Of a stretch of DNA of 64,000 nucleotides, positions 9,817 to 59,319 are shown piece by piece; the stretch's first letter is position 1; each line of letters begins with the position of its first letter. The stretch is from Isurus oxyrinchus (Eukaryota), in assembly GCA_026770705.1 (NCBI GenBank), contig JANJGN010000008.1:161882001-161946000 (forward strand), in the 5' to 3' direction. A program made the translations under genes and the position numbers. The notes beneath the pieces are model-generated. The model was not told the DNA's origin. It searched no databases and was given only the letters and a program-made list of their open reading frames with translations.

Positions 9817-9833
9817 AACAGGCCCAACATAAA

Positions 9834-10078
9834 CAAAAACAGAATTACGTGGAAAAACTCAGCAGGTCTGGCAGCATCGGCGGAGAAGAAAAGAGTTGAC
9901 GTTTCGAGTCCTCGTGACCCTTCAACAGAACTAGTTCTGTCGAAGGGTCACGAGGACTCGAAACGTCAACTCTTTTCTTCTCCGCCGATGCTGCCAGACC
10001 TGCTGAGTTTTTCCAGGTAATTCTGTTTTTGTTTTGGATTTCCAGCATCCGCAGTTTTTTGTTTTTGTTTTTATTTTT
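9834..10078. mobile_element. Palindromic Penelope-like (inverted pseudo-LTR) element with hammerhead motifs, copy 1
   Basis: 102-bp arms 9831-9932 / 9933-10034 with 2 mismatches. 14-bp TSD aggcccaacataaa at 9820-9833 and 10079-10092. Confidence 0.85.
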
Positions 10079-10539
10079 AGGCCCAACATAAAGGCATGTG
10101 TGCACTTAGAGAAGTTCAAATTAATTTCAATCTTTATCAACCTTTAAAATGAAATTTAGATACTCGCTAACTTTGGCCCAGACTTGGGGAAGAGGAGTGT
10201 GAGACGAAATGCAATGTGGAGGCAAGACTGATTCTGGGGCCAAAAGAACACCCTTGACCCTCTGTTTGATGGCTGCAAGGAGGGTTGCTTAATTTGATCG
10301 GCTTCATGGGACTCACTCTAGAAGAGAATATCAGAGTACCATTCCTAGCAGCAAGTGAACACTCTGTACATTACCTGCAGGGCCTGGGAACAGATACACA
10401 GCCAGCACACTTCAAGGAATCTGGCAAGTAACCAGCACCGTGTATCTTTTGGATAGCTCCAAGGATTGCTTCTTGGAAAGCTTGTCCTTTCCACATGATG
10501 CTCCTCACCCATGGTAAGTCCTCATGTGACCTTAGAGGT

Positions 10540-10925
10540 ATGTCCTCTGGGATGAGGTAGCTGTCCTATGATGAAAGGCTAAGTAAATTGAGCTTATATT
10601 TCCTGGAACTTGGAAGAATGAGAGGCGATCCCATTGAAACCTGCAAAATCCTTAAGGGGCTTGATGAGGTGGATGTTGAGAGATTGTTTCTGCTGGATAA
10701 GGGGCCGATCACTTAGGACTGAGATGAGGAGAAATTACTTTATTCAAAGGGTTGTGAATCTTTGGAATTCTTTACCCCAGAGGGTTGTGAATGCAGCATC
10801 ATTGAAGGCTGGGATAGACAGATCTTTGGTCTCTCAGGGGATCAAGGGATATGGGAAGCTGGTAGGAACGGAACCCCAAGATCAGCTATGATAATATTGG
10901 ATGGTGGAGCAGGGTCGATGGGCAG
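10540..10925 (+). mobile_element. CR1 LINE 3' fragment
   Basis: RTEMRRNYFIQRVVNLWNSLPQRVV; very similar to 9010-9400. Confidence 0.85.
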
Positions 10926-12079
10926 TGTGGGCCAATTCCTGGAGGTACACCTTCATAGTCACATCTTTGTCAGACTAAGGTTTCTCAAGGCCGTGCACTA
11001 CAAGTCATTTCACAGCAATCTAACTGCATGAATGATGCACAGCCATTTACGGACACCCAGGTTGGCGATTTGTACCCAGCTCTGTCACTGTGCATGTATT
11101 CCTTCAACTTTCAACCTCTCGAGGCTATTCCTCTGATAGTTTATCCAGATGCCACCTGGGGAGCACATGCCCACCTGCAGAAAGGCTTCCCTGGTCAAAT
11201 GTAGGTGCCGGAGGCACATTCTCACTGACATACCCAAGGAGCTCAGAAGGGATTTGTGATTATCCGGTGGAGTTGGCCAAGCTGCCTTCCGTACAGCCTT
11301 TGATGAATCTTCTGGAAACTCTCACTAGCTTCGGGAGGCGAAGAGGAATTCATAAGGATTGCACATGCTGTTCAGTGGGAGTTGTCGCTCTTGCAGAAAA
11401 AATGTTTTACAAGAGAAAATAATCAAAATGCTTAATATTTTATCAAATATACTGCCTCATTTGAGCTAAATAAAATCTCCTGTCATTAGTCTTTGGTTAC
11501 AGAGTTCACCTGCTGCATACTTTGTGGCATTTATAACTAATTATAGCTATTAAATCACTGACAAAGTATAATTAAAAAGTAACTCAACTGAAAAATTCCT
11601 GCGATTTTTTCCTATAGGAAAACATATGTGCACAATCTATGTAATCTCCTCCCACTGAGCACCTAGTCAGCTCTGTTTATTCTGATAGCACCTGGGCAAA
11701 CACAATCAATGAGTCATACAGTGGTATTCAGACTGGATCACTGTAGGAATGCTTCAGACAGTTTGTTTTAATTTTAGTGAAGCTTGTCCATTATGTTGGC
11801 TGAACAGCCAACATGAATTAAAACTATCAGGGTCACTTTTTGATCTAAAAAGTAGCAGCAGGGTACCTGGTCTCACCTAAAACAGAATTCTAATTCAGAT
11901 TGATGGTTACAATATATCGTAACATGTATATTTCCTTGACAAACCATTGAGGTCCAATGCTCAGTGAAAGAGCTAAGATGCTCTGCCCAGTGGTAGATGA
12001 GGAGTTTTACAAGGTACATTTTGGGAATTGCAAAAATAAAGCACTTTCAAAGAAAGAGCAAGTTAATTTCAGGATTTAA

Positions 12080-12410
12080 AAAAAAAAATCCTTCTTGGGT
12101 ACATCGTTGCTAGCAAGGCTAGCAAATAATTGCCTATCTCTAATTGCCCTTGAGAAAGTGGTAGTCTTCTTGAATAGCTGCAGCTCATTTGGTGTAGGTA
12201 CACCCAGGGTGCTTTTGGAAGCGAATTCCAGGATTTTGACCGTGACAGGGAAGGAATGGAGATATAGTTCCAAGTCAGGATGTTGTGACTTGGAGGGGAA
12301 CTTGCAGGTGGTGACGTTCCCAAACATCTGCTGCCCTTGTCCTTCCAGATGGTAGAGGTCACAGATTTGGAAGGTGCTGTTGAAGGAGCCTTGGCAAGTT
12401 GCTGATTCTG
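12080..12410 (-). mobile_element. LINE (CR1/L2 group) 3' end with A-tail-adjacent terminus
   Basis: Homologous to 6416-6600. Its 3' tail (ttctcaagggcaattagagataggcaa) is shared with the SINEs at 40705 and 63381. Confidence 0.75.
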
Positions 12411-16860: not shown

Positions 16861-16903
16861 CTTACCTGGCAGGGGAGAGATCTTCATCGCGTTTCTGCCA
16901 GGG
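16861..16903 (+). ncRNA. U1 snRNA-derived 5' fragment (not a complete U1 gene)
   Basis: CTTACCTGGCAGGGGAGA (16861-16878) equals vertebrate U1 nt 4-21 as recalled. It is followed by a diverged match to stem-loop I (catcgcg ~ GATCACG; tttctgccaggg ~ TTTTCCCAGGG). Confidence 0.75.
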
Positions 16904-16911
16904 AAAGAGCA

Positions 16912-18450
16912 ATGGCTCTAACCAGTCAAACTCCTTACCATGGGGTATCTAACACCATCTGAGTCATGGGGAAGGGCAGTGAGCAAGGAACAGGAATGGA
17001 TAGGACCTTCTTCACCAAGAGGATCCTATTCAAGCTGTGTGGTTTCGAGGCTATAGAGATCTACTGCCTACAGGATTTCCCCAGCGCTGGATTTTTTGAT
17101 GTGACCTTCAAGCAAGTGGCAGCTTGTGTCAAACTCCTGAAGGTGTTTGAGCAAAAGAAAGACCTGCCAGAAATGAAGATCCTGACGGCGGAGCCGCTCT
17201 TTGCTCTACCGTTGCAACGAGAACGGGTTGTGACGGTGCATCTGTACAACCCCTACGTCCCTGTCGCTGATGTGCTCACCTTCCTTACCAGGTACTTCGA
17301 TAAGGTTGGGAGCTGCACTGAGGTTAAAGATAATTTGGGGATCTGGACATGTAAATGCCAGGTTAAGGAAACGCTCAAGACCGACGGTAAGGGAGCCATT
17401 TTCCACGCCCCTTCCAGATTTGCTATCGGGGGAAGCCGTGGCTACCTTGTCTACGCTTGGCAACCCAAACTTTGTCGCTCATGCGGCAAGTCTGGTCATG
17501 TGGCGGCCAACTGCAGCTCCGTCCTCTGCAAGAACTGCAAAAAGGAAGGGCACTAGACAAAAGATTGTAAACAGGCTAAGTGCTGCAACCTGTGTGGCGA
17601 GGCAGGTCACCTCTACAAGGCCTGCCCCAAATGTTGCCGTACTTATGCACAGGCAGCCAAAGCCAACGAGGGGGAAGCAGAAGAAATGCCTCGTGTCACT
17701 CCAACCACCAAGGCCCCCAGGGAGAACAACGGGACAAAGGAGGACACAGAGAGAGACAAGGTGGAGGAAAAGATTGGGGCAACAGACGACCAACCAACAG
17801 CACGGCCCCCTGAACCTCCCACTCCTCAGGAGAGCGAATCAACGGAGGAGGAGGAGACAGCTGTGGGAAAGCAGCAGGGGGAGTGGCAGCTGGTGAAGAG
17901 AGCCAAAAGGAAGAAGGGGCTAAAAAGAAACCAAGCCACTTCCCAGACAAGAGTCAAGAGGCGTCTCCTATCCGACACGGATAACAAGAGCAGCAGCTCT
18001 TCAGACGAAGAAGGGCCAGGGCGGCGCCAACAGAAGAAGCGGCAAAACGCTAGGGAGTTGGAGGATGAGACACCTGAGCTCCAGAACGTTGGAGACAATG
18101 AGGAGACCTGCGCACTCCAACATTGCCCACAACCCGAAGAGGCCAGTGCACCACAACCCCAGGAATCTGGGAACAGTGAGGCGCTCAGCGCACCCCAGCG
18201 CCGGGAAGCCGGGAGCAGCAACGCCCCAGAGGGGGAGAGGATTGGAGAAGCTTCTCCAACAGAGGACATTTCAAACCCCGCTCTCTGCACGGACCCCCAG
18301 ATGCCACCCGAGCAGAACAACGCCAATGGGGAGGTTCAGGACGCTTTCCTCAGCCCATCCCAAGTGAAGCAATTTGAGCACACCATGGGCATGAAGGAGC
18401 AGACCAAAGGTCTGGAACTCTCAGAGACAACAGGTTTGGTAAGTGACTAA
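16912..18450 (+). pseudogene. Tx1 ORF1 (three CCHC zinc knuckles, acidic/basic disordered tail; ZCCHC3-like N-terminus)
   Basis: One frame from ATG 16912 with in-frame stops at 16960 (TGA) and 17554 (TAG). Knuckles CRSCGKSGHVAANC, CKNCKKEGH*TKDC, CNLCGEAGHLYKAC. Confidence 0.9.
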
Positions 18451-18460
18451 CTGCTTTAAA

Positions 18461-21400
18461 ATGGGTGTAAAGATTGTATCCATAAATGTGCGTAGCATTA
18501 AATCTACTACGCGATGTGTTGTGACCTTGGACTACCTTGCCAAGGTCAAAGCTGACCTGTTGTTTCTGCAGGAGTGTGCGATACCGCACCTCAGCTCCTA
18601 CAGGCAATGGTCACGATGGTGGTCCCATGGGCCATCGATCTGGTCAGGAGGAAATGACTCTCGTTCCTCCGGCCTGGAGATTCTGCTGCGGGGAGGCAAC
18701 TTCACCGTCTCCCAGGTTAAGGAGGTGGTGGGCGGACGCCTCCGCGTAGCAGACGTAATGTACAAGAATGCTCCACTCCAGTTAATTAACGTCTATGCCC
18801 CGTCACAAGGGGCTGAGCGGCCAGAGGTTTTTCAGCAGCTCCCACTGGCGACCTCCAGGCCGGTCATTCTGGGCGGTGACTTCAACTGCATCATCGATGC
18901 AGCTGGACAATCCGGCAGGGCTGACAGCAGATTGGATGCTACATCCAGATCCCTGATGGAAACAGTAAAGGATGCCAAGCTGCACGACGTCTTCAGCAAC
19001 CCTGTAGATGGAGCGCAGCGTAGATACACCTGGTCGCGGCCTGACGGGTCCGTCTGTTCCAGGATAGATTTCCTGTTTGTGTCCCGTGCATTCACAATTA
19101 GATCCACCGACGTCAAGCCGGTGTTATTCTCTGACCACTGCCTCCTACTGGCTGACTGTCACTTAGAAAAGGACCAGAGGGTTGGCAGGGGGGCATGGAA
19201 GCTAAACGGGAAACTGCTGACCCCAGAGAACATTGAGGAGCTCAAGAGGGATTACAAAGGTTGGAGAACCATGAAACCCCACTTTGAGTCACTGACACAC
19301 TGGTGGGAAGCGATCAAGGGAAACATCAAGAGGTTTTTCGTCCTCAAAGGCACCCAGAAAGTTAGAAAGGAACAGAGGGAAATGTCCCGACTCCAGAAAA
19401 ACATGCAGAATCTGCTCTGGCTGCAGTCGATGGGGGTCGATGTCAAGGAGGAACTCCAAGAGGTGAAGAGCCAGCAAGCCTCGCTCTTTGTTTCGGAGGC
19501 CTCCAAGATCATCTTCCGTTCCAGAGTCCACTCCGTGGAGCAGGACGAGACATGCTCACGTTTCTTCTTCCAAAAGCTACACAGAGAGAGCTCTGTGATT
19601 AGCAGCCTGAAGGAAGAAGATGGCTCAGTAAAGTCATCACAGTCCGACATTTTGAGGATCAGCAAATCCTTCTATGCTGGATTATATGACGTGAAGCCCA
19701 CAGACAACACGGCCTCCCAGTCCTTCCTGTCCTCTATCACGGAGGTCTTAGACAACAGTACATGGGAGAGTCTGGACAAAGCGCTAACTCCTGACGAACT
19801 GACTGAGGCCCTTGAGTCCTTCGAGAAGAGTAAAACTCCCGGAAGCGACGGCTTGCCGGCGGAGTTGTATTCGGCTCTGTGGGACTGGATCGGCCCGGAC
19901 CTGCTAGAAGTGTATGAGAGTATGCTCCTGACCGGCAGTATGTCAGAATCCATGAGGAAAGGCATTATCACCCTCATCTACAAGCACAAGGGGAAAAGGG
20001 AGGAAATTAGAAATTGGCAACCCATTTCACTGTTGAATGTGGACTATAAGATTCTGTCCAAGGTCATCGCCAATCGGGTCAAATCTGCTCTGGAATTGGT
20101 GATTCACCCTGACCAGACCTGTACTGTGCCGGGCAGGAAGATCTCTGCTGCTCAGGGATATGATTGCCTATGTGCAGGACAGGGGTGTGGATACCTGCCT
20201 CATCAGCCTGGATCAGGAGAAGGCCTTTGACAGAATATCGCACACCTACATGGTGGATGTGCTCTCCAAAATGGGGTTTGGGGAGGGAATTCGCAATTGG
20301 ATCCAACTGCTCTACACTAACATCAGTAGTGCAGTCTCAATCAATGGGTGGGAATCAGATAGATTTCCTATTAAATCTGGAGTCAGGCAGGGCTGCCCTC
20401 TCTCGCCTGTTCTTTTCGTGTGTTGCATAGAACCCTTTGCTGAGTCCATCAGGAAGGATCCGGGCATAAGAGGAGTGACGATCCCAGGTAGTGGAGGCAC
20501 TCAGATCAAAGTTTCCCTGTACATGGATGATGTCGCTGTCTTCTGCTCGGATCCGCTGTTGGTGCACAGACTTATCCACATCTGCGACCAGTTTGAACTG
20601 GCCTCGGGAGCCAAGGTAAATCGTGGGAAGAGCGAGGCCATGTTCTTTTGGAAATGGGCTGACTGATCCTTTGTCCCCTTCACTGTCAGGGCTGATGGCC
20701 TGAAGCTGCTGGGGATACGGTTCGGAGGGACCAGGGCACGCGTTAGAAACTGGAAGGAGCGAGTGTCTATGGTGAAAAGGAAACTGGGCATGTGGGAGCG
20801 ACGCTCCCTCTCCATTGCGGGTAAGAACCTGGTCATCAGGTGTGAGGCACTCTCGCTGTTGCTGTACGTGGCGCAGGTTTGGCCCATTCCACACTCCTGT
20901 GTGGTGGCGATCACCCGAGCCATCTTCCGCTTTATCTGGAGGTCGAAAATGGATCGTGTCCGCAGGGACACGATGTACAAGCCTCTAGATAAAGGGGGAA
21001 AAAATGTGCCCGACATCGCCCTCATACTGATGGCCACCTTTGTGTGCGGCTACATCAAGCGGTGCGTAGACCCTCAGTATGCAAACACCAAGTGTCACTA
21101 CATGCTGAGGTTCTACCTGTCCCCGGTGTTGCGAAGGATGGGTCTGGCCACGATGCCGTGGAACGTTCCAAGTAGTTGGACCGTGCCGTACCACCTGTCC
21201 CTCGTGGGAAAATTTATGCAGAGAAACACATTCGACCACAAGTCCATCAGGCAGTGGTCAGCACGTAACGTGTTAAAGGCCCTGAGGGAAAAGGAGAGGG
21301 TGGATCCTGTGGGATGGTTCCCTGAGCAGACTGACAAAGTCATTTGGCAGAATGCCTCATCACCAGAACTTTCCAACAAACACCTAGATGTAGCTTGGCT

Positions 21401-21851
21401 GGTGGTGAGAAAGGCCCTCCCTGTAAGATCCTTCCTACACGCCAGGAGTCTCACCCCCTCTGCACGTTGCCCTCGAGATGGCTGTGGTGGGGAAGAGACC
21501 GTTGTTCACCTCCTTGTAGATTGTGTCTTTGTGAAGAAGGTCTGGAGAGAGATGCAGTGGTTTCTGTCGAGGTTCATCCCGAGCAGTTCTGTGACAGAGG
21601 ACTCTGTGCTCTACGGGCTGTTCCCAGGGACACACACTGAGACAAACATCAACTGCAGTTGGAGGATCATCAACTCGGTGAAAAACGCTCTTTGGTCTGC
21701 CCGAAACTTGTTGGTTTTCCAGTGCAAAGAGTTGTCCCTGACCGGGTGTTGCAGACTGGCACATTCCAAGGTCCAGGACTACGTGCTGAGGGACACAGTT
21801 AAGCTTGGGGCAGCCGCCACAAAGGCGCAATGGGGAAGGGTCGCTGCCTAA
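18461..21851 (+). pseudogene. Tx1 ORF2 (AP endonuclease, reverse transcriptase, C-terminal CCHC)
   Basis: SINVRSI, LQEC, NVYAP, GGDFN, SRIDF, SDH (APE); PGSDG, PISLLNVDYK, DQEKAFD, GVRQGCPLSP, YMDD (RT); CPRDGC..ETVVHLLVDC. Frameshifting deletion near 20145 and TGA at 20664. Confidence 0.93.
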
Positions 21852-25100: not shown

Positions 25101-26487
25101 GCTTAATATCTGTTGTGGGGAAGTTGTTACATCACTCGTTATAGCAGTCACAGCTGGACACTTAGAAAAACACAAGGTGATCGGGAAGAGTCAGCATTGC
25201 TTCATGAAAGGGAAATCATGTTTAACCAATTTATTAGAGTTCTTTGAAAGAGTAACATATGCTGTGGATAAAGGGGAGCCTGTGGGCATACTATACTTGG
25301 ATTTCCAGAAGATATTTGATAAGGTACCATATCAAAGCTTATTGCAGAAAATAAAAGCTCAAGGTATAAGGGGTAACATCTTAGCCTGGATTGAGGATTG
25401 GCTGTTTGGTAGAAAACAGAGAATATGCATAAATGGGCCTTTGTCTAATTGGAAGGATGTCACTAGTGGAGTCCCACAGGGATCTGTGCTGGGCCCTCAA
25501 GTTTTTACAATTTACATCAATGACTTAGATGAGGTGAGCGAAGACATGGTAGTTAAATTTGCAGATGACACAAAGAGAGGTAGGAAAGTATGTTATGAAG
25601 AAGACATAAGGAGTTTGCAGATGGATATAGATAAGTTGAGTGAGTGGGCAAAAATCTGGCAGAGGGAGTTTAATGTGGGAAAACATGAAGTTGTTCATTT
25701 TGGCAGGAAGAATTAAAAAGCAGAGTATTACTTAAACTGAGAACAGCTGCAGAATTCCGAGGTGCAGAGGGATCTAGGTGTTCTGGTGTATGAGTCACAA
25801 AAAAGTTAGCCTGAACATACAGCATATAATCAAGAAGGCAAATGGAATGCTATCCTTTATTACAAGAAGAATTCAACATTGAAGTAAGGATGTTATGCTT
25901 CAGTTACACAGGGCATTGGTGAGACCACATCTCGAATACTATGTGCAGTTTTGGTCTCCTTATTAAAGAAGGGTGTAAATGCGTTGGAGGCAGTTCAAAG
26001 GAGGTTTACTAGTTTGATACATGGGATGAGGTGGTTATCTTATGAGGATAGGTTGGACAGGCTGGGCTTGTTTCCATTGTTTTTAGAAGTGAGGGTGACT
26101 TGATTGAAGTATATAAGACCCTGAATGGTCTTGACAAGGTGGCTGTGGAAAGGATGTTTCCTCTTGTGGGTGAGTCCAGAGCTAGGGGGCACGGTTTTAA
26201 AATTAGGGGCGCCCTTATATGACAGAGATGAGGGGAATTTTTGTTCTCTCACAGAGTTGTGTGACTTTGGAACTCTGTGCCTCAGAAGGGAGTGGAAGCG
26301 TGGTTATTGAAAATTTTTAAGGCAGAGGTGGATAGATTTTTGTTAGGCAAGGGAATCAAAGGTTATTGGGGGTAGTTTGGACTGTAGAACTCGAAACACA
26401 AACAGATCAACCATGATCTTTTTGAATGATGGAGCAGGCTCGAGCGGCTGAATGGACTACTTCTGTTCCTATCTCGTATGTTCGTAG
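22190..26487 (+). mobile_element. Near full-length decayed CR1 LINE (ORF1 zipper + SGNH esterase ~22515-23430; ORF2 APE-RT ~23620-26370); 5' limit uncertain
   Basis: ORF1: KCLRLEKLQLRVIELEAELQ, VVVVGDRTVRGID, VHVGANDIG, DGLHLN. ORF2: KALYLNMCSIHNK, PGPDRLHPRVLKE, YLDFQKIFDKV, GVPQGSVLGP, FADD. 3' end ctcgtatgttcgt. Confidence 0.92.
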
Positions 26488-27784: not shown

Positions 27785-27890
27785 TAACATTCACCCTTCT
27801 TTCCACAGATGCTGCTTGATGTGCTGAGAGTTTCTAGCTTGGTCTATTTTTTGTTTCAGGCTTCCAGCATCTGTGTTCTTTCCCTTTTTG
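27785..27890 (+). repeat. Old single-arm fragment of the Penelope-like repeat
   Basis: ccacagatgctgcttgatgtgctgagagtttctagc...ttccagcatctg matches the palindrome arms; no hammerhead core. Confidence 0.55.
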
Positions 27891-28892: not shown

Positions 28893-29922
28893 TTAATGGG
28901 CCCATACCGTTAAGTAAAAGTCTGGATATCAGTGATGGATAGGATTACGATTAGGCTTGAATTCATCTCACCAGCAAAGGGCCATATTCAATTCTAATAT
29001 AACACCAGCTCCTTCCCAAAACCATCAAGACTGTTGCTGCTGGCTGAATGCATCAGTATTCTATGCTGCTATGCAGCAGTGGAGTGGTGAGAGAATAATC
29101 TGCTCCTCGTTTTGTATGCAGGCTCTGTCCTTTGCTAGTGAACATTAAGCCATCGCACACAATCATGACCGTCCAGGCGTTTGACAAGTTCGACCAAACC
29201 TGAAGAGGCTGCTTCTTGTTCGGAGAAATTAGGCTATTTAAATTTTGATATTTAAGTCTTTAAGAGCTGAGAATAGTGCCTCTGTCATAATGTTGACTAT
29301 TCCCAGGACACTGATGTTTCACTGATGAAAGGTATTCATTAAAATGCTCAATCTGGATAACTATTGGCTATTTGTTACTGCAGTCATGTTGCTAATACAA
29401 ATTATTCATTATTTCTGCACCCCCTTCCCAGAGATGTACTTACTAGTCTCAATAAGTTAGCCAGCTCAAACAGGAGATGAGAATGAATACCTGCTGTCGG
29501 TCTTAGTTAGATACTGAGATGGGCAGACAAGAACTGACAGACTTATAATGAAATGACGTGAGTTCACAGACATTCTGACTGTTGAGAATATTTCTGCCTT
29601 AGTGTTGCTAAGAATGGAAACAATACATAAATTTTTTATGGGTTTTCTTATGAAATAATTAAAATCATATTTTAAATGAACTATTGCGTGGGCTGAAATA
29701 TTCAAGAAAGTAAAGTAGCAGAATGCAATTGAACAGAAAGAAAGGCTCATCAGCACACCCTTACGTAGAGCTGAATTTGAACAGAGGAGGCAATTTTATA
29801 ATTAACATATAGTTAAGATGAATCCTGTTTTTGAAGCTTTGTGATATTATTTCCTCTGATTGTAAAGGCTGCCCCTCGTAGCAGAAGCAAGAGGAAACTT
29901 ACGACAACACTGTTTAAAATCA

Positions 29923-30148
29923 TAAAAACAAAAAACTGCGGATGCTGGAAATCCAAAACAAAAACAGAATTACTTGGAAAAACTCAGCAGGTCTGGCAGC
30001 ATCGACGGAGAAGAAGAGAGTTGACGTTTCGAGTCCTCATGACCCTTCAACAGAACTGAGTTCTGTTGAAGGGTCATGAGGACTCGAAACGTCAACTCTT
30101 TTCTTCTCCGCCGATGCTGCCAGACCTGCTGAGTTTTTCCAGGTAATT
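29923..30148. mobile_element. Palindromic Penelope-like element with hammerhead motifs, copy 2
   Basis: Near-perfect inverted arms centred at 30058. 13-bp TSD ctgtttaaaatca at 29910-29922 and 30149-30161. Confidence 0.85.
30058..30098 (+). ncRNA. Minimal type I hammerhead ribozyme motif (mirror copy on minus strand 30019-30057)
   Basis: Stem I gagtt/aactc; core CUGUUGA(A); stem II gggtc-atgag-gactc; GAAAC; GUC cleavage triplet at 30091-30093. Stem III (ACGU) can form only as a dimer. The core has U at the usual A6. Confidence 0.65.
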
Positions 30149-30833
30149 CTGTTTAAAATCAGGCTGGGCTTCTGTCGAGTGTCTTGTTTTCTTGATGCCG
30201 CCCGAATGGGGACACACAGTGAGGAAAAACAGAAAGGGGAGAAAATGCAAAAAAAAAAAATCTTAAAAAGTTAACAAAAGAGGTACGATTAATTAAAGAT
30301 CTCTGTCAGCCAGCACCAGCTGCTCAATTTGAAACTCTTGATCAGATTAAGGGAACTTTGGTGCAAAAACAGAAGGATCTGCAAAAGCCACCAGGTCATT
30401 CAGCTTCTGCGGAGTGAACAGTCAACATTTTGGGGGGGGGGGGGGTCATACCTTTTGCAAGACTGGAAAATATAGGAGACACAAGAATATTATCAGAATT
30501 AGATAAAAGACGGAGGGGAGGGAAAAAGGAAATAGTGAGGAAGTATCTATGGATTGTCTGGTAGATGAGGTTGCTGATCATTCTCAGTCATCTAATAAAA
30601 CGTATTATAGAAACAAAAGACATTAAAGAAACATGATAAGTGGGAGGCCAAAGAAAAGTGCAACAAAATGTGAGCGATTGTGAACCTTGGGTGAAGAACT
30701 ATATTTCAGTAAAATAGAGTTCAATTCTGAAGATTGCCATTTTAAATGTTGAATATCTGACAACGGCTATCGCTCAAAACAGATGCTATTCTCCTTGGGG
30801 AGGTGAATTCCCTCCCGTCTAGTTTTACCAGTA

Positions 30834-32946: not shown

Positions 32947-32949
<3 letters not shown>

Positions 32950-32997: not shown

Positions 32998-34113
32998 TCA
33001 TCCTTACTCTAGGACTCCCATTCAGTCCCTCTTGTACATGTCTTTGTCCCAGATTCACAGAGGGACTGCCATACATCCATGATGTCTTTCAGAGATCAAG
33101 CTACAGACAAACTGTAGGTTTAGTTTTGCATGGAGGCTATGCTGAGAGCACAGCTAGTAGTCAGGATAGGTTGCTTGTAAGGGAAAATCGCAGAATGCGA
33201 AGTGTAGCTGGTACAGTGACCTGGAAACAGTAAAAGCAGAGTGAACAGCAGAAACAAAGACATCCTCTAGCAATCTAGCATTAATGTAGACAGCTTGGAA
33301 AATTTCACAGCTGATCGCATGAGTTGTTGAGCAGTGATGCATGATGGTATGAGCATCAACATAATCCTTTGTGAAGTGACAGCAGAAACATGAACAGTGG
33401 TAGTCTGTTTACCCTTAACAGGCTACTTGGATCTATGAAATGTGTAATAAAGCTTACAATTGAAGCCAATGCAAGAATAGTCAAAACTGATCTCTTCTTC
33501 AATGAGAATTATTACCTTTGAATGTAAAAAGGTCCCACTATGCCTTAAATTATTAAATTTTAGTTAAATGTTTTTCCACATTTACTTTTAACATATTAAT
33601 AAAATGTTGAGCGAATAATACAATGGGAAACTGAGCACTTGAATTTGTCTCCTCTGGCTGCATCAAATACAACACCAGCAGGTTTGGGCCAACTCATGGA
33701 AAACATCCAGGGTTTAAAAGGTTTGCTCATTAAACTCTTCAACAAACCATTTGTTTTGTATCTATGAATAGACCAACTATTTACATTACAGTAGCTCAAC
33801 CATACCAATAAGGCAATAAATAGACTACAACCGGTCATCACACTTACCTTCCCCCAATCTCATTCTCACTTATTTCTGGATCTACATTGCCAGCCCAAGT
33901 GTAGGAACACAAATGTAAGGCATCGCTGCCAATATGGCACTCACTCAATACTGCACTTCATTGCAGACTTGGGTTTCATGTTCAAATCCTAGGGTGATCT
34001 ACAAACGCCTTCAACCTTCTCTTGTAAGGTGTTCATGTCTATCGCCTCCTCTTTAAATCTAATGTAGGGATATTTAACAAATGTTAGAAATGAAGTGAGT
34101 GTGCTGATCTAAA

Positions 34114-34317
34114 TTAAAAATAGAAAACACTGGAAATATTCAGCAGGTCAGGCAGTATCTGTGGAGAGGAACAGTTAACGTTTAAGGTCATCACGAAAGC
34201 TCATCATTGACCTGAAATATTAGCTCTTTCTCACCACAGATGTTGCCTGGCCTGCTGAATATTTCCAGAATTTTCTGTTTTTCTTTCCGATTTCAAGCAT
34301 CTGCAGTGTTTTGCTTT
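34114..34317. mobile_element. Old, diverged palindromic Penelope-like element, copy 3
   Basis: Inverted arms (ctggaaatattcagcaggtcaggcag / gttgcctggcctgctgaatatttccag) with a decayed centre. Possible TSD tgatctaaa/tgagctaaa. Confidence 0.7.
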
Positions 34318-34619
34318 TGAGCTAAACCAAATGTTTAATCGAAACACTCGGGACTCTTGGAGCAGGCGGAGGTCACAAACAGTTCAGAAAAACAGAAGTA
34401 GCTATTTTTAAAAAAGAAACTTGTCTGCATCTATGGCACTAGCTTATGATTTATTTATTTGAGAAGATAACTACATTTAGAAACTGAGGTTTTTGAGTTT
34501 TTGTTTTATGACTTTAGTTTGGCTACGGCTGAATTAGGGGCAGAGTGAGAGGACATTGTGTTCTTGGACTGCTTGGCAATGGCAAGGCATATGACTTACA
34601 GCCAGGGAACTTAATTTAG

Positions 34620-43429: not shown

Positions 43430-45007
43430 TAGGGGCGACAAGGTATTGGAGGTGTTGGCAGGCTTAAAAGTGGACACATCTCCAGGTCCAGATGATTTGT
43501 GTCCCAGACTGCTGAGGGAGGCAAGGGAGGAGATCGCAGGGGCTCTGACCCAAATTTTTAATTCCTCTCTGGCCACGGGGGAGGTGCCAGAGGACTGGAG
43601 AACAGCTAATGTGGTTCCGCTATTTAAGAAGGGTTGTGGCGAGAAGCCAGGGAACTACAGGCCAGTGAGTCTCACTTCAGTGGTAGGGAAACTATTGGAG
43701 AAAATTCTGAAGGAGAGAATCTATCTCCACTTGATCAGCATGGCTTTGTCAGAGGGAGGTTATGCCTAACAAATTTGATTGAATTTATTGAAGTGATGAC
43801 CAGGTCTGTAGTTGAGGGTAGTGCAGTCGATGTAGTTTATATGGGTTTCAGCAAAGCCTTTGACAAGGTTCCACATGGGAGACTTATAAAGAAGGCAAAT
43901 GCACATGGGATACAGGGTAATTTGATCAGGTGGATTCAAAATTGGCTTAAATGTAGGGTGATGACAGAAGGATGCTTTAGTGACTGGAAGCCAGTGTCCA
44001 GTGGCATGCCACAGGGGTCTGTGCTGGGTCCCCTATTGTTCATCATTTATATAAACAACATAGGTGACTACATGGGGGGTAGGATTAGCAAGTTTGCAGA
44101 TGACACAAAGATTGGCCGGGTGGTTAACAGTGAGGTTGAGTGTCTTGGGCTACAGGAAGATATCGACGGGATGGTCAAATGGGCAGATAAGTGGCAGATG
44201 GAATTTAACCCTGAAAAGTGTGAGGTGATACACTTTGGAAGGAGTAATTTAACAAGGAAGCATTCAATGAACGGCACGACGAAGTTCTGAGGAACAAAGG
44301 GACATTGGCGTGTGCGTCCATAGATCACTGAAGGCAGAGGGGCATGTTAGTGGGGTGGTGAAAAAGGCATATGGGACACTTGCCTTTATCAATCGAGGCA
44401 TAGATTAGAAAAGTAGGGAGGTCATGTTGGAGTTGTATAGAACCTTGGTGAGGCCACAGCTAGAGTACTGTGTGCAGTTCTGGTCGCCACATTATAGGAA
44501 GGATGTGATTGCACTGGAGGGGGAGCAGAGGAGATTCACCAGGATGTTGCCTGGGATGAAACATTTAAGTTATGAAGAGAGGTTGGATAGACTTGGGTTG
44601 GTTTCGTTGGAGCAGAGAAGACTGAGGGGCGACCCGCTCAAGGTGTACAAGATTATGAGGGGCATGAACAGGTTAGATAGGGAGCAGCTGTTCCCCTTAG
44701 TTGAAGGGTCAGTCATGAGGGGACACAAGTTCAAGGTGAGGGACAGGAGGTTTGGGGGGGGAATGTGAGGAAAAACCTTTTTACCCAGAGGGTGGTGACG
44801 GTCTGGAACGCACTATCTGGGAGGGTGGTGGAGGCGGGTTGCTTCACATCCTTGAAAAAGTACCTGGATGAGCACTTGACACATCATAACATTCAAGGCT
44901 ATGGGCCAAGTGCTGGTAAATGGGATTAGGTAGGTAGGTAGGTCAGGTGTTTCTCATGCGTCGGTGCAGACTCGATGGGCCGAAGAGCCTCTTCTGCACT
45001 GTGATTC
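43430..45007 (+). mobile_element. 5'-truncated CR1 LINE in intron 7
   Basis: [55 protein letters not shown]. Confidence 0.93.
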
Positions 45008-47037: not shown

Positions 47038-47954
47038 GGCCTGGAATTTGCAGGGTTTTGATGGCAAAGTGCCTGCGTTTGTCGTCAATACCCTTCTGAA
47101 TTGGATCACAACTTCAGGATTTAACGGCAAGCGCAGGTGAACACAGAATTCCTGAAATAAAAACAGAAAATGCTGGAAAAACTCAGCGGGTCCAACAGCA
47201 TCTGCGGTGAGAGAAACAGAGTTAGTGTTTCGAGTCCGTATGACTTCTTCAGAAGAAGAGTCAGAGGGATTCGAAACGTTAACTCGGTTTCCCGCTCCAC
47301 AGATGCTGTCAGACCTGCTGAGTTTTTCCAGCATTTTGTTTTTATTTCAGATTTCCAGCATCTGCAGTATTTTGCTTTTATCACAGAATTCCTGAGGTTG
47401 CGGCCTGTCATTCACTACTCCAACACAAGTGGCACTGTGCTAACCACGCTCCCCACGTTACCAAAGCTAGCAGTGAAATCAACTGGTCACATGAGCACTT
47501 TCACTCCCATATCGCTGTTAGAAACCCCAAAAGAATTTCAGACTTGCTCAGTTAGATATAATTGGGGTTTTTAAACGGCAATCTGACAAACAACAATTGC
47601 TGAACAGATGACCCGGCTATGAAAAATTAGTGGAATGCTATTCTAAATGCCTAAAATTAATCATTCGGTTTTCTCGAATCAGAATTTAATTAAACTTAAA
47701 CTAAAATTTCATGAAAAATTCATGTTTCCTTTTTACACAGAACAAACAAAAAAGATTGTAAAGTGATTTGATTGTTACTGCTTTTCATTTCCTGGCTAGC
47801 TGCCTGTGAGAATTCGTTAATGTGATTGGCTGTTTGGATAGCAAGATGACATCACTGCAGCTCTTAATTTTCATTGTGCAATTGTGTTGTTTCGAGCTCT
47901 CGCTAGAGATCACACCATCTCTTAGTGGCCAGTAGTGAGCACAAAATCTAGGCC
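47038..47954. mobile_element. Harbinger-like MITE hosting palindrome copy 4
   Basis: Termini ggcctggaatttg / caaaatctaggcc are imperfect inverted repeats of the same type as 6947 and 9658. Confidence 0.5.
47156..47381. mobile_element. Palindromic Penelope-like element with hammerhead motifs, copy 4 (intron 5)
   Basis: Inverted arms; 14-bp TSD cacagaattcctga at 47142-47155 and 47382-47395. The minus arm has a canonical CUGAAGA...GAAAC core. Confidence 0.85.
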
Positions 47955-49956: not shown

Positions 49957-50056
49957 CGCCGACATATGCACCCATAATTCCGGTTACCACCATCAGCTGC
50001 ACACTGGACCCTAACAGCCCTCGTACTTTAGGGTGGGCTGTTTCCGAAATGTACAC
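49957..50056 (-). CDS. SLC2A8: GLUT8 exon 4 (100 bp)
   Basis: ttttccag|[33 protein letters not shown]|gtatga. Not in the ORF track. Confidence 0.96.
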
Positions 50057-50984
50057 CTGGAAAAGAAAAGAGTCCCAAAAACCATAAGCTTTGTTTCAAA
50101 AGTTTTTCAGTGAAAACATTACTGCACATCAATTAAATGACATTCCAAAAATAGTCCGTGTTACATGGTTTGAAATTGGATAAAATCAAACTGGAGAGGA
50201 TTGCAGCAGTTGTGTTCAGATCACCCAGAGTAAAGAACCTGTCATTCCTGTGATACATTGCTATTACTCAGTTCTCCATCTCTGAGTTGTTGACATTTCT
50301 CATGGGAACCATAACAAACCAGTTTTCAAGAACTCAAAATTAGATAGGTTCTTAAAATACTGTATGTTACCAATTTCCCAGCTAGGATCGCCCTCTATTG
50401 GTTTAGCAGGGTTCCTACAAGCTTCATTTTAGGCCAAAGAGCAAGTGGTGAGCGTTTTAAATTACTGTAGTGCTAATTTTTAAAAAAAACTCACCTTTCT
50501 CAAGGAAACGTTTAATTGAAAAGGTGGCGATTAAAATCCAGAAAGCAGCCATTCCAGGCAAGTGGAGAAGCTGATGCTTTCTGGCATTAAACAGGGGCAC
50601 CTCCATAGGTCTGTCTACTGGTCTGATTTCTGAGGAGTTGGCTTGTTTACACACTAAACAGTGATCACAAGGGCAATAAAATTGCTGGCATTGAACTATG
50701 CCTTCTACACAAGTCATCACCGTGTGAAGATGGGGGGGGGGGGGTGGGGGCGGTGTTTGGGGGAAAAGAATGAGGCAGGCAAAGAAAGACAAAAATGAAA
50801 CCTGACCACTTTGGTTTCATCCTGCTCAGTATACATAGTACAATGCAGCATTTTTGGTTCAAGTAAGTTTTTTTTTGGAAGGAATTCAGTTTTGGCTCTT
50901 TTGGGAAGATTGTTCCGGCACACGTACTTTCCACGCAATTTATCCTTGTACTCAATCTTCTGACGTTTTATTTATTCCTCAAGG

Positions 50985-52184
50985 GGGGTCATGCCTGACA
51001 AATCTGTTAGAATTCTTTGAGGAGGTAACCAGTAGGTTAGACAAAGGAGAGCCGATGGATGTTATCTACTTGGATTTCCAGAAGGCCTTTGACAAGGTGC
51101 CACACGGGAGGCTGCTCGGTAAAATAAGAGCCCATGGTGCTAGAGGCAAGGTACTAGCATGGATAGAAGATTGGCTGTCTGGCAGGAGGCAGAGAGTGGG
51201 GATAAGGGGGTCCTTCTCAGGATGGCGGCCGGTGACTAGTGGAGTTCCGCAGGGACCACAAATTTTCACTTTATACATTAATGATCCAGATGAAGGAACT
51301 GAGGGCATCCTGGCCAAGTTTGCAGATGATACAAAGATAGGTGGAGGGACAGGTAGTATTTAGGAGGTGGGGAGGCTGCAGAAGGATTTGGACAGGTTAG
51401 GAGAATGGGCAAAGAAGTGGCAGATGGAATATAACGTGGGGAAGTGTGAGGTCATGCACTTTGGTAGGAAGAATAGAGGCATAGACTATTTTCTAAATGG
51501 GGAGAGAATTCAGAAACCTGGAGTGCAAAGGGACTTGGGAGTCCTAGTCCAGGATTCTCTTAAGGTTAACTTGCAGGTTGAGTCGGTAGTTAGGAAGGCA
51601 AATGCAATGTTGGCATTTATTTTGAGAGGACTAGAATATAAAAGCAGGGATGTGGGCCCCGTATTTCAGGAAGGATGTGCTGGCCCTAGAGAGGGTTCAG
51701 AGGAGGTTCACAAGAATGATCCCTGGAATGAAAGGCTTAACATATGAGGAATGTTTGAGGACTCTGAGTCTATACTCGATGGAGTTTAGAAGGATGAGGG
51801 GGGATCTGATTGAAACTTACAGAATACTGAAAGGCCTGGATAGAGTGGACGTGGGGAAGATGTCTCCATTAGTAGGAGAGACCAGGACCCGAGGGCACAG
51901 CCTCAGAGTAAAGGGAAGACCTATTAGAACAGAGATGAGGAGAAACTTCTTTAGCCAGAGAGTGGTGAATCTATGGAATTCATTGCCACAGAAGGCTGTG
52001 GAGACCAGGTCATTGAGTGTATTTAAGACCGAGATAGATAGGTTCTTGATTGGTAAGGGGACCAAAGGTTATGGGGAGAAGGCGGGAGAATTGGGTTGAG
52101 AAACTTAGCAGCCATGATTGAAAGGCGGAGCAGACTCGATGGGCTGATTGGCCTAATTTCTGCTCCTATGTCTTATGGTCTTAT
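50985..52184 (+). mobile_element. 5'-truncated CR1 LINE in intron 3
   Basis: [38 protein letters not shown]; ends tatgtcttatggtcttat. Confidence 0.93.
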
Positions 52185-53868: not shown

Positions 53869-54075
53869 TGGCACAACAAGCGAGGTCACGCCACTGGCCA
53901 TTCCAGTCAATACTCGACCACCATACAACATCCAGACATTCTGTGCTGCAATGATCATCGTAAACCCAGCAACATAGGGAACAGCACAGATCATCAGGCT
54001 CGGCTTTCTGCCAATTTTATCAATAATCCAGCCTCCAATTATGCCGCCCACGGCTGCTCCTATCGTAACCAAGGA
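53869..54075 (-). CDS. SLC2A8: GLUT8 exon 3 (207 bp)
   Basis: ttgtag|[38 protein letters not shown]...[17 protein letters not shown]|gtaagt. Confidence 0.96.
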
Positions 54076-54677
54076 CTACAAAGAAGTTAGAGGACAATGA
54101 AATCAATTTTACTTTCATTTCGTTTTAATGAAACAAACATTTAAATTTCAATTCTTCCACTTACATTAATTGGGCTGTAAACACACACAACTCTCAATAA
54201 GGGAAAGCATTCATGTAATCAACCAATTTAGGTTAATTCACTCTGAATTCAGACAGTTTCTACATGCAAAATGGTGTAAATCTTCACGTTAAAAAAATCC
54301 AACGTTCAGCTCTAGACTTCCGTATTCCAAATAAGTCAAAAAGGTGACTAGCTGGGAGCATAGTACGATGCCACAAAGGCTGACTGACAGAGGAAGTGTG
54401 GAAATGGAGGAGATAGATAAGCTGCCTAAAAATTCTGTCTGAACAGTATATTCGCCAAACCTATGTTAACCGCCACCACAGTCATCCCAACGTTAGATGG
54501 TGCAGGGCGGGATGAATGGAAAATTAAAGGGGAAAATCAAACATCCTATGTCAAGTTCAGTAACAGGAAGAGTACATCAGTTAAGGGGACTAAAATGGAA
54601 TATTTAAAGAATTGGCCCAACTACACCACATGCAACGGTTGAAAGAACATCCCATAGATTCTTAAGTAGATGCTTAC

Positions 54678-54840
54678 CCCAAACCAGGAAGCCTGAGTGG
54701 AATCAAGATTCAGGTATGGGTTTGGAGTAGCTTCCAATTCTGGAATGGCAGGAGAACTGTAACCAAGGACAAATCCAAAACTAAGAGGCCCCAGAACAGC
54801 AGCGAATGTAGCCAGGTACAGATTTCTGTTGCACACATTA
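54678..54840 (-). CDS. SLC2A8: GLUT8 exon 2 (163 bp, starts in phase 2)
   Basis: ccacag|[36 protein letters not shown]...QASWFG|gtaagc. [17 protein letters not shown] fits GLUT8 rather than GLUT6. Confidence 0.95.
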
Positions 54841-57800
54841 CTGTGGAGATAGAGGAAAACCAAGGCATCTTTTAATCCAAAAAGGTTTGAAGATTTGAGC
54901 ATTTAACACTGAAACAAACACTGTAAACTACACACATGCTGAGTGCAAAATTCATTGCTCATCTCTCAGAGTCACAGCTTAAATTATTTTGTGGCAATGG
55001 CAAGCAGGATTTCTTTACCATACACAAAATCTGCTATTTAACTAGAGGAGAATCGTTTTGATGAAAACATAGATTTGCAGGAGCACAGAGCACCTTCGAA
55101 AGAATCAGACATGAGCAGAGGGAAAAACTAAAGGTTTAGAGTGGTGGTTTAAACAGTTACTTGCTAGCCGAGTACCATTGAGTTGAGTCTGCAGCTACAA
55201 TACTTTCCTTTTTCAATTCATTGGAGAACATACTGCCTGTGTCTGTTCACAACCCTGACCCAATGTTCCTTTGGAGCTTCCTGTGGAGAAGTAACCATGT
55301 GTGCGAGAAAGGAGTTTTGATGTCGGTGTGCTACTGTTTTCAAAGGCAAGAATTTTACAAAAACTAAGGAAAATGGATTATAAAGTGCCCTGTTTGAAAC
55401 TCTATTTATTGATAGTGATAATTTCAGTCATTGTGTAACAGAGGCATTTTCAGGCATGTCTACTTTCCAAATTGAACTAGACTCCATTATTTTTCTGCAT
55501 TCTAGTGGGAAAGATCTACGTGTAAATGATGTTAAATGTTGAAAAATGGACCAGTGAGAGAATGTGCAGTGGATTCTGTCCTATTGGATCAGCTGGTGCT
55601 GAAAAAGAATGAAAGATTATTTAAACGTGCCAGAACACACTGATCTAAAAAGACTTTACAATACACTTGAGTCAAAGGGTGTGCAGTACTGAAAGTCAAA
55701 AGCTAAACCCAATTCTGTTTCAGAAACAGGCATTACCTTCAATGATGAGTGAGGGAAAGGAGTACAATAATGCGATGTTATGGCTGTACAGTTACAAGTG
55801 TTGCACTTGCAATTACATGAGCATGAGGAAATTAGTTTTGACCTCCATGCTATGTTTACTTTTATTATCTATTAAAGAAAGGATACTTAACCTTGTGACT
55901 GGAACGAAGTACATTTTAGAACTGTCTTCCATCTTGCCATTTTAATAAGTATTTTATTTGCAGCCTAAGCATGAAAGGTAAAGTACCTTTGTCGAGAAAC
56001 TAGAATTGAAATCCTGATGAAGTGCCTAATTTATCCCAGGAGGAGGAAATATGTTAGCTTGCTGAAAAGCCTCTATGTAGAAGACTAAATGTTCAGATTG
56101 CAGTTTATTCCTGGGATTTGATCACTTGATTTAACAAAATATTTTTTCAGATTTTGCAGTCAACAGCTCACAGCTACCCAGAGATTTTGCAGACTTCTGA
56201 GTATGGACTTGCTCAAGTCCAGTGTCTCCAGTGCAGCACCTTCTAAAGTGCATCTGTGGAGTCTGCAAGCAGCGCAAGAAACAGCGAGGCTCTTCAACCA
56301 ATCAGATTGAGGAATCCTCACTGAACCCACAAATTCTAAAGCATGGACAGAAAGTGAAAAAGATGGTGTAAGAAACGTTAAAAAAAAGTTTAACTGTTTA
56401 TAAAAGCTCCAAAATGAATTGACTTCTGAAGAAATGAAACTTGGCACTTCCAAAAATAAATTTTCAGGGCCAGAGAGGTTGTTTGGCAGTAATGATCACT
56501 TATCATGCAATTAAGAGTTCACTTAGTTTCGAATGCACCAGCCTAACTTTTTCTTGAGTCTTTGGTGGCCCAACTTCAGGGGTTGCATTAATTTCGGAGC
56601 TGTGCCTTTGATGAGGACCACTATAGTGAACACTGTGGAGGAGCAGGTTATCAGATGGCATCTTCCAGATTCCAGAAGCTGCTGCCAGATTTACTCCATT
56701 ATAAAAGTGTCAGACCCACGTTATTATCTAGTCAAAAATCCAGGCCGTTGAATTTCATTAGCTCTGTGCATCAAATCCAAGTCAAATAATCTTGCATGGA
56801 TATTTTCTATTTCTTATACCTGAATTATGCTTTCTTTTCTTTTTCAGTTCAGGAAACCAAATTTAATTCTCCAAGCCTCTCTTCACAAGTTAGAGCCTAA
56901 GTTTCAGAGCTCCTATGCATCTCCAATCTAAATATAAAATGGTCATTTTCCCTTTAAACCCATAATTTTGATCACCGTGCTTGTAAGTGGTCTCGCTAAT
57001 GATCTAAAGAAGATTAGAAAATTTGTACTCTTTTCCCCCGATTAGATGGCAGTTCCTTACAATTCCATCCCATTCTCTGCCTTTGTAATAAGTTAAGGGT
57101 TGGTACCAATACAACTTTAGCTTCGAAAGTCAACTTGCTGAGCAGGATAGGGAGACAGTAGTAGGCTGCAGCTGATAAACCTTTTAGTACGTGATAGGGA
57201 TGAGCAGTAGCTCAGTTTATAAAAAACCCCCACAATAAATGTTGTTCTGGGCGAAGAGCCGCGACTGCATGGGAAACCAGCCTGGCCAATCGGGATACCA
57301 ATCTTCAGCAGCGTAAACTCTCATCTTCAGAATGAGCTGCATTGTACTGGAAACTTAGAGGGAATGGTTGGTTAAAAATTCAGGAAAATGTGATCGAAGA
57401 ATCTGAATAGGCTACCATAACGTTTTGAGAGAGTTTTAGCATCAAGCTACATGAATGAAAACTTCCAAGCTCAGAGCTGAGAATTTGCTGGAGTTATCAG
57501 TAATCTGAGGGATAGGCCTACACAGACCACATAAGGAACTGATCATGATTCACATTTGAACTAAACATTTAAATTACCAAACACGAGAAGCAATTTTGAG
57601 TTAAGAGACAGTATATAATGAAACATATACGCCACATACATTAACATCAGGAAGTACTGACGCTACGCAATGCTTGTGAATATCAAATCCATTATTAATG
57701 AGATTAGAGATCCTGCCATCAACATGCTACAAGCAAGGAGATTGGAATATCAAAACGTTCTTCTCACCTTCCAGTGACATTTTTAATATGAAACACAGGT

Positions 57801-58230
57801 ACTACAAAACCAATTGCATCTTGATGCATTTGATTGAAATGGGCATCAGTTATGTACGGATTGGAGTGCAATTTATGCTCCTGTAGGATCAATCTTTTAC
57901 TGCCTGGTTTTTGCCATGTAAGTGCAATAACAACAGGCTTAATAAAGCTATTGATTTTGTTCAAATGCGTTGTACACAAATTAGTTGATGTGAGACATTG
58001 GAGCAGGGGAGGAGTTTTTTTGGGATGAGCTTCAACTACTGACATTTTTGTAGTTATTCAACACAAGATCACAACATAAAGCCCGTGCATCAGAAAGTGA
58101 GACCGCTGAATCATAATCAGCTGATCCAACAGTGATTTGGTGCAAATGAACAAAACTCTGAGGGAGAACACACACACATTATGAAACTCATTCTGATTAA
58201 GAATATATAGCCCAACAAACCCTCATTATT

Positions 58231-58442
58231 GGGTCTGGCAGCATCGGCGGAGGAGAAGAGTTGATGTTTCGAGTCCTCATGACCCTTCAACAGAACAGTT
58301 CTGTTGAAGGGTCATGAGGACTCGAAACGCCAACTCTTTTCTTCTCCGCCGATGCTGCCAGACCTGCTGAGTTTTTCCAGGTAATTCTGTTTTTGTTTTG
58401 GATTTCCAGCATCTGCAGTTTTTTGTTTTTATTTTTGTTTTT
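58231..58442. mobile_element. Palindromic Penelope-like element with hammerhead motifs, copy 5
   Basis: Short left arm and full right arm, centre cagaac-a-gttctg. 14-bp TSD aaaccctcattatt at 58217-58230 and 58443-58456. Confidence 0.85.
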
Positions 58443-59186
58443 AAACCCTCATTATTTCTCGTTTCTCTTTACAGCTGCTAACAAAGTTCTGAATTCCCAA
58501 GTTTTTCGACATGTTTGCAATTTATATAGTGCTCCTTGCATGAGAAAAATGTCTCTGAACACTTCATTTAAGAGAACAAGAAAAAGAGGAGATAGCATGT
58601 GAAACTCACCATTTAAAAATACACCTTCAAAGCATTTTCTCTGATGCACTTTACGCTTTAATAAACATTCAAAAGCAAAACTCTGTATAATTGGAGATAA
58701 CAGCCAACATACTGGACTTGCAGCATCTTTTCAACACATTCGATGGATTTTTGCCTATTTGAAGTGACTTAGAGAAGACAGACTAATCCACAGCAATCCA
58801 ACATTATTAGGGGGAGAAGATCTGTTCCAAGCTCTCTTCCAGAGGTCAGTACGAGATAAATGAAAAGCCCAAATATGACGAGTCAATTAGTTTTCCCACA
58901 GGCAGGGACACTGCTTTGACTTTTCCTGGCATATTCCCAGTCAATTGCCATGTGAAGATCTTGTTATCTGTTCTTTTAACAATGAAATGTAACATCAATG
59001 CTTTTTTATTCTTGGTTTACAGATCTGTCCAACTCTGAATAGTGAGTCACATGTTGAGCCTGGAGGTTAACAGCGCATTCATTCTATGATTTAGATATAC
59101 TAATTTCATCAATGATTTCACACAATCACTTTATTATTTGTACTGTTTACTAGCTACCGTGAAGATACCCACTACATTATTTTCCA

Positions 59187-59284
59187 TAACAAAAACAAAA
59201 ACAGCTGGAAAAACTCAGCAGGTCTGGCAGCATCTGCGGAGAGGAACACAGTTAACATTTCGAGTCCAAATGACCCTTCAACAG
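59187..59284 (-). mobile_element. Single-arm Penelope-like element, copy 6
   Basis: The minus strand starts exactly at CTGTTGAAGGGTC..GACTCGAAA and ends T-rich. Imperfect TSD attattttcca / attactttcca. Confidence 0.75.
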
Positions 59285-59319
59285 ATTACTTTCCACATTT
59301 AGCTCGATTTACAATTGTT

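Follow-up and report, generated by a model that had tools for sequence, protein, structure and literature searches.

Palindromic insertions of a Penelope-like element in Isurus oxyrinchus and a junction hotspot at the 5' edge of its hammerhead motif

A 64-kb window of the 4.98-Gb assembly of Isurus oxyrinchus (G000:C8:161882001-161946000) carries short head-to-head palindromes derived from a Penelope-like element (PLE), the arms of which contain a minimal hammerhead ribozyme (HHR) motif or remnants of it. An inverted-repeat search revealed five palindromes in the window. The arms 9831-9932/9933-10034 match at 98% and the arms 29962-30057/30059-30154 at 97%, and three further inverted repeats lie at 47161-47343 (82%), 34107-34291 (80%) and 58232-58364. 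Searches by nhmmer and blastn with one arm as query yielded 13 arms making up 8 insertions (nhmmer E 1e-38 to 8e-4; Table 1), and with the inverted repeats they confirm all five palindromes and two single arms of the original prediction. Target-site duplications (TSDs) of 11-14 bp, variable in length, flank 5 of the 8 insertions, and TSDs of 9-18 bp were found at many genomic loci. The window, the insertion density of which was previously described as very high, holds insertions about twice as densely as a random sample does (8 in 64 kb vs 9 in 14 random stretches of 10 kb).

On the position scale used here, x = 0 falls on the G in the GTTCTG of the arm, C3 of the core is +3 and hammerhead cleavage follows +33. 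The full motif CUGNNGA...GAAAC-GUC is present in only four arms of the window, both arms of the 9834 palindrome and both of the 29923 palindrome, and the claim that each arm carries a hammerhead did not stand: the remaining arms are mutated, cut in the core or start downstream of it. GCC and AUC replace GUC in the arms of the 58231 palindrome, and the core is interrupted in the 34114 palindrome and in the plus-strand arm of the 47156 palindrome. Three of the five centres sit at the 5' edge of the core and two lie inside it; the centres cagaact abutting agttctg, cagaact-g-agttctg and cagaac-a-gttctg read as originally given.

Table 1. Coordinates of the insertions, ribozyme motifs and target-site duplications in the window, and of the intact element L154.
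Feature	Position	Strand	Remarks
Palindromic PLE insertion	9834..10078	+	inverted untailed arm 9834-9932, tailed arm 9933-10078
Minimal HHR motifs of the 9834 palindrome	9937-9967 (+), 9928-9898 (-)
14-bp TSD of the 9834 insertion	9820-9833, again 10079-10092	+
Old single arm	27797..27879	+	starts 3' of the ribozyme, no HHR
Palindromic PLE insertion	29923..30148	-	tailed arm on minus strand
Minimal HHR motifs of the 29923 palindrome	30053-30023 (-), 30063-30093 (+)
13-bp TSD of the 29923 insertion	29910-29922 and 30149-30161
Extra decayed arm	30354..30429	-	absent from the original prediction; nhmmer E 8e-4, blastn E 5e-5
Old palindromic insertion, related subfamily	34107..34320	+	junction inside core/stem II; no clear TSD
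Older palindromic insertion	47156..47381	+	A6 core on minus arm; junction in 5' part of core
14-bp TSD of the 47156 insertion	47142-47155 and 47382-47395
Palindromic insertion	58231..58442	+	short inverted arm 58231-58296 plus tailed arm; both cleavage triplets mutated
14-bp TSD of the 58231 insertion	58217-58230 and 58443-58456
Solo untailed arm	59187..59284	-	cut at core edge
11-bp TSD (1 mismatch) of the 59187 arm	59176-59186 and 59285-59295
Intact full-length element L154	L154:3780-7450 = G000:C1:516380-520050

An autonomous PLE is the source of the palindromes, which are insertions truncated at the 5' end and partly inverted. Among the 30 best genomic matches, many arms run upstream into a non-palindromic 3' untranslated region and then into an open reading frame (ORF) ending in GIY-YIG, revealing the arm as the 3' pseudo-long terminal repeat (pLTR) of an ORF with reverse transcriptase (RT) and GIY-YIG. 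The ORF carries YIDD, DKG and a CxxxxCxxC linker, plus CxxC within GIY-YIG. The locus L154 holds a full unit, with a 5' pLTR, an uninterrupted ORF of 918 amino acids and a 3' pLTR; its period is 3,328 bp, its TSD 13 bp, and the direct repeats of the pLTR lie at 3780-4122 and 7111-7450 of the locus. Pfam matched the ORF of L154 to RVT_1 at residues 408-568 (E 3e-6) and then to GIY-YIG at 821-851 (E 2e-3), both below the curated cut-offs. The endonuclease (EN) region reads VYCIRCSQCGLLYIG followed by two His residues, which by eye, without alignment, makes a CCHH motif whose two cysteines lie between GIY and YIG. The sequence CPRKRCNTC between RT and EN meets the CX2-5CxxC linker definition, and by this linker motif alone the element fits the Neptune/Nematis type. 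A tandem array (L171-L173, G000:C1:12159788-12166469) contains at least three full units head to tail with a period of 3,325 bp. Genome-wide, an exact 28-base anchor found 104,345 arms and the ORF-start motif occurs at 3,402 places; adjacent inverted 5'-truncated copies and a one-ended tail were found at sampled loci. A sequence search of the PDB gave no relative, and L154 is a candidate for biochemistry. The Penelope assignment of the original prediction therefore holds: longer copies with an RT plus GIY-YIG ORF, which it suggested looking for, exist, the TSDs are variable, and no DDE transposase is linked to the palindromes. Its description of extremely truncated products also stands, but not that of a non-autonomous family, since junctions and fillers differ between copies and the parent element is itself non-palindromic.

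The junctions have a hotspot at the 5' edge of the HHR core, which is a hotspot of 5' ends with or without inversion and does not lie at the cleavage site. Counting palindromes across the genome with identical anchors throughout gave 435 with spacers of 0-30 (cleavage region; 14 per spacer value), 2,357 with spacers of 46-75 (stem II; 79 per value), 8,953 with spacers of 76-105 (5' edge; 298 per value) and 897 with spacers of 136-165 (22-36 nt upstream; 30 per value), the bins 31-45 and 106-135 lying outside the counts. Junctions at the 5' edge are thus enriched 10-21-fold. With tighter anchors, 3,758 palindromes have spacers of 0-8 vs 2,276 with spacers of 9-38 (418 vs 76 per spacer), and reversed-pattern controls gave 0 matches genome-wide. 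A random genome-wide distribution of junctions, named in the original prediction as evidence to the contrary, does not fit these counts. The arm and copy samples for the analysis of ends come from the start of contig C1. Among all 101 anchored arms of contiguous C1:0-3.73 Mb, 40 end within -10..+12 of the core edge (30 of 69 when counted per insertion), with a mode at -2 to -4, a pile at -1..-4 and a downstream tail. Junctions also range out to kilobases from the edge; the earlier statement that the fold-back point always falls there is therefore true of three palindromes in the window and of these fractions, not of every copy. Clustering of this kind is also seen in the older A6 subfamilies, where the search gave 101 palindromes and 27 of the first 50 have spacers of 0-8. 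Twelve solo copies end in the hotspot, seven tailed and five untailed. Because solo copies of both 3'-end classes share it, the hotspot is independent of inversion and of the length of the complementary DNA (cDNA), and a limit on cDNA length was rejected as its cause.

Long copies and jump copies of the element bear on what sets this end. We inspected 90 loci, which take in most of the first 100 places with the ORF-start motif, and obtained 58 contiguous long copies (two array duplicates dropped) and 30 other copies, of which 26 are jump copies, with a 5' segment of the ORF joined to a pLTR segment, and four were set aside (one without a jump, three with internal deletions). The upstream HHR is reached by 46 of the 58 long copies, and only two of these 46 stop at its edge, vs 40/101 arms (p 3e-6) or 30/69 insertions (p 1.5e-6). 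Stops at this point are thus rare among long read-through copies, which makes the fold itself an unlikely cause of the stop. In one of the 26 jump copies the second pass runs past the end of the first, vs about 16 under permutation. The second pass ends at most 7 nt from the first end in 5-6 of 26, one being ambiguous through microhomology (0.4 expected). That jump copies almost never extend past the first end points to a physical 5' end of the RNA. A single TSD surrounds the whole composite in many jump copies. Some junctions are repeated letter by letter within one element (L169, L192 and L233) or are identical in both arms (L182, L206, L244 and L233). The jump sites cluster at +278 to +280 (six copies: L169, L174, L182, L215, L231 and L245) and near +1093 (three copies: L159, L220 and L242, the last two with an identical junction), which suggests RNA 3' ends or further priming sites in the 5' region of the ORF. 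A second cluster of 5' ends of full-length copies was observed at +96..+155, in the region of the upstream pLTR's tail and start sites. The simplest reading of the ends is a linear RNA with a physical 5' end, likely commonest at -1..-4.

The layout of the arms bears on how the palindromes form. We pooled 44 palindromes from an unbiased sample, tight-spacer matches, top matches and the window. Exactly one arm is tailed in 42 of them and two arms in none, and the tailed arm is paired with an arm ending near +100 in 32. Rare variants common to both arms number 12, vs 0.6 for random pairs, to which later gene conversion could contribute. Near-zero spacers would be hard to obtain by intramolecular fold-back, which favours two cDNAs joined end to end. 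On the other hand, 11 palindromes with one arm shorter than either start site, together with the shared jump junctions, speak for the first cDNA having been copied. We give twin priming followed by end joining about an even chance of being the route to the palindrome, and fold-back copying of the first cDNA is a possible, less favoured route. The sense polarity of the tail, the TSD layout and the 5' truncation would fit a sense template. Self-priming on an antisense template has been proposed for PLEs (PMC3846280). In the Poseidon element PAc of Anolis carolinensis, both target strands are extended from two internal starts that bound the tail, RNA of the ORF start is required downstream, and HHR cleavage is not needed in vitro (PMC11167929). 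At one locus, L131 (G000:C1:3231201-3231343), two arms abut tail to tail, opposite to the usual layout.

We propose that these truncated, partly inverted insertions of the autonomous PLE have their junctions clustered at the 5' edge of the ribozyme probably because many of the template RNAs begin there. These RNAs would physically start at -1 to -4. The protein would nick both target strands, and priming would take place at two internal RNA sites that lie about 35 nt from each other (~+135 and ~+100), as shown in vitro for the anole Poseidon. On short RNAs spanning the HHR, the tail and the ORF start, the cDNA would run off the 5' end after 100-140 nt. Joining of this cDNA end to the target would give a solo copy; joining to, or copying of, the end of the second cDNA would result in a head-to-head palindrome; and a jump to a site further downstream on that RNA, frequently +278, would make a partial tandem. 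The RNA 5' end might be made by a start site at the initiator-like (Inr-like) YYAGTTC, by exonucleolytic trimming to a boundary of the HHR or its ribonucleoprotein (RNP), or at the AG acceptor-like site, and self-cleavage of the ribozyme at +33 would not set the junction. A more specific version is tentative: a single short RNA with its 5' end at the ribozyme edge and its 3' end near +278 might be used by a protein dimer that primes both nicks at offset sites. Both cDNAs would then run off this one 5' end, and the RT would jump to the partner cDNA, giving a perfect palindrome, or back to the RNA, giving reiterative partial tandems, with the A6U HHR of this expanding family serving as a structural or RNP boundary and not as a cutter.

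Several points weigh against template RNAs that begin at the ribozyme edge. No cap-derived excess of G at -2 was seen by eye in the non-inverted copies among the first 100 matches. No RNA 5' end was found, the RNA data being assembled contigs only and uninformative; among the rows listed for 4 of 23 RNA-run contig sets, whose RNA status was guessed, there was neither a start nor a GT-AG joint leading onto the HHR edge. Long copies may be self-selected for processive RT, weakening the read-through contrast, and short microhomology at several jump junctions makes internal template switches possible. The letter-identical junctions repeated within an element also fit circular RNA, the 11 palindromes with an arm shorter than either start site fit fold-back copying better, and the end analysis sampled only the start of contig C1. 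Splicing as the cause of the hotspot is unsupported: the AG at -1/0 is acceptor-like, but the junctions keep upstream bases, no inspected junction looked spliced and there is no strong donor within 450 nt. The D. virilis intron is described as ending at helix I (PMC4209133).

The HHR motif has a stem I of AGUU/AACU, a stem II of GGGUC/GACUC and a palindromic ACGU mini stem III, with an extra A after A9 in 159 of 161 motifs. This architecture matches that of the minimal PLE hammerhead. Of the core C3 U4 G5 A6 N7 G8 A9...G12 A13 A14, U16 H17, everything is conserved except A6: young cores are CUGUYGA, U occupies position 6 in the intact element and in 103 of 116 motifs, and only the older subfamilies retain A6. 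In other hammerheads, Mg2+ cleavage is strongly reduced by A6C, and A6U is not mentioned in the accessible passages of that paper (PMC7151607). Covariation in the stems is weak. Pair 2 of stem II changes from G-U to A-U in nine copies, one consistent change; a two-sided stem change is suggested by only one decayed copy, and stem I is invariant. Rfam gave no match to a hammerhead family, only hairpin-driven microRNA matches below gathering scores, and folding of the monomer was not significant (z -1.2 to +0.7). In the youngest subfamily, x = -35..-1 of L172 resembles permuted pieces of the HHR's own 3' half and may allow an alternative fold.

The original prediction held that the ribozyme structure defines where the inversion forms. 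In its direct form, the ribozyme fold or a bound protein would stall first-pass RT at the 5' strand of stem I and trigger fold-back. The hotspot is real, lies at the 5' boundary of stem I and is still seen in older subfamilies; a minor class of junctions links the 5' strand of stem I with its 3' partner (2 of the first 50 in the stem II spacer bin), and the PAc HHR is protein-assisted (PMC11167929). However, 44 of 46 long templates read through this fold, jump copies have concordant ends at sites away from the hotspot (e.g. about -15 and -195), RT would free the 5' strand before reaching it, and the monomer fold is weak as noted above. We therefore regard the direct form as unlikely. The fold or RNP may act indirectly, by setting where the RNA begins.

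Small circular RNAs of the pLTR and ORF start, copied by rolling circle in a retrozyme-like manner, would make the hotspot the commonest circle junction. Such templates have been proposed (PMC4209133), and the identical junctions within insertions and in both arms are what they would produce; but the junctions lie off the HHR cleavage site, the 5-6 jump copies stopping at the junction are unexpected for a closed circle, and most short copies lack any jump, which makes circles improbable. Self-cleavage of the hammerhead as the source of the RNA 5' end is largely refuted by junction position and seems highly improbable, as junctions are 21-fold rarer in the cleavage region than at the 5' edge and the young cores have lost A6, even if a small class, about 4 of the first 50 palindromes in the cleavage-region spacer bin, has its fold point exactly at the cleavage palindrome ACGT and the ends of some long copies lie at +96..+155 or +39. 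Least credible is a self-propagating palindromic short interspersed element (SINE) or MITE (a miniature transposable element with inverted repeats) with an inherited centre: some centres recur, and two jump copies, L220 and L242, share one junction at +1093, but variable TSD lengths, unequal arms, diverse centres and fillers, rare variants common to the arms of one insertion and a non-palindromic, RT-encoding parent with no DDE transposase refute it for most copies.

Inverted 5'-truncated copies, one-sided tails and junction palindromes have been described (PMC8557442; PMC3846280), as have minimal hammerheads, including opposite-strand pairs (PMC4209133). The element class and its palindromes are therefore already known and, as annotation, ordinary. 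Similar to the EN-containing (EN+) PLEs Neptune and Nematis (PMC8557442; PMC3846280), the element has an RT plus C-terminal GIY-YIG ORF with a CX2-5CxxC linker, pLTRs, partial tandems, an adjacent inverted 5'-truncated copy, a 30-40-bp tail at one end, variable TSDs and a palindrome at the inverted junction. It differs in that most copies are arms of 100-140 nt whose junctions concentrate sharply at the 5' edge of the HHR, and in that the tail is strictly on one arm and the targets are random, non-microsatellite sites with clear TSDs. With the minimal type I hammerheads of PLEs (PMC4209133) it shares the missing loop III, the palindromic ACGU at 15.2-16.2, the extra nucleotide between A9 and G10.1, the G10.1-C11.1 pair and a short stem I, whereas the young expanding subfamily has U6 and a 5-bp stem II, and its head-to-head copies are not co-transcribable as a tandem dimer; in Schistosoma, opposite-strand hammerhead pairs 100-700 bp apart have been reported (PMC4209133). 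PAc likewise has an HHR in the pLTR near the ORF start and two tail-separated end sites matching two internal RT starts, but it belongs to a different clade by linker and its ORF starts inside the HHR, in contrast to about 170 nt after it here (PMC11167929); the accessible passages on PAc do not analyse inverted junctions or 5'-end hotspots. Non-LTR retrozymes are also short HHR-bearing derivatives of PLE pLTRs, but they form head-to-tail repeats of a fixed unit (bioRxiv 10.64898/2026.07.22.740005). The present copies are one-off products with variable ends, and a retrozyme origin, which requires head-to-tail HHR units, was rejected for the head-to-head or solo copies of the window. With MITEs and foldback DNA elements the palindromes share short length, high copy number and palindromic form, in contrast to their unequal arms, variable TSDs and RT-encoding parent.

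We found no literature report of the hotspot, the jump pattern or the strict tail coupling, though subscription papers, supplements and Repbase/Dfam lay outside the search and may hold the family. The way in which inverted and tandem structures arise in PLEs, and the function of their hammerheads, are still called undefined (PMC8557442). The hotspot at the front edge of the ribozyme gives a hint of the copying mechanism of these elements, which are poorly understood. A young family with more than 100,000 arms and an intact ORF allows precise predictions that can be tested, namely that the RNA has a 5' end at -1..-4 and a second end near +278, that the two starts are used in a coupled way and that cleavage does not set the junctions.

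Other repeats occupy the rest of the window. A long non-LTR retrotransposon with a zinc-knuckle ORF1 and an ORF2 with apurinic endonuclease-like (APE) and RT domains, presumably Tx1/L1-like, lies at 16963-21851 with few breaks. A fragment of LTR-retrotransposon-like pol covering the RT/RNase H region is found at 1240-2471, and RT fragments of long interspersed elements (LINEs), which we take to be CR1-like, lie at 25102-25716, 43628-44290 and 50839-52099. Outside the window, a Penelope copy at L031 adjoins a long cadherin-repeat (protocadherin-like) exon on the minus strand (1893-4481).

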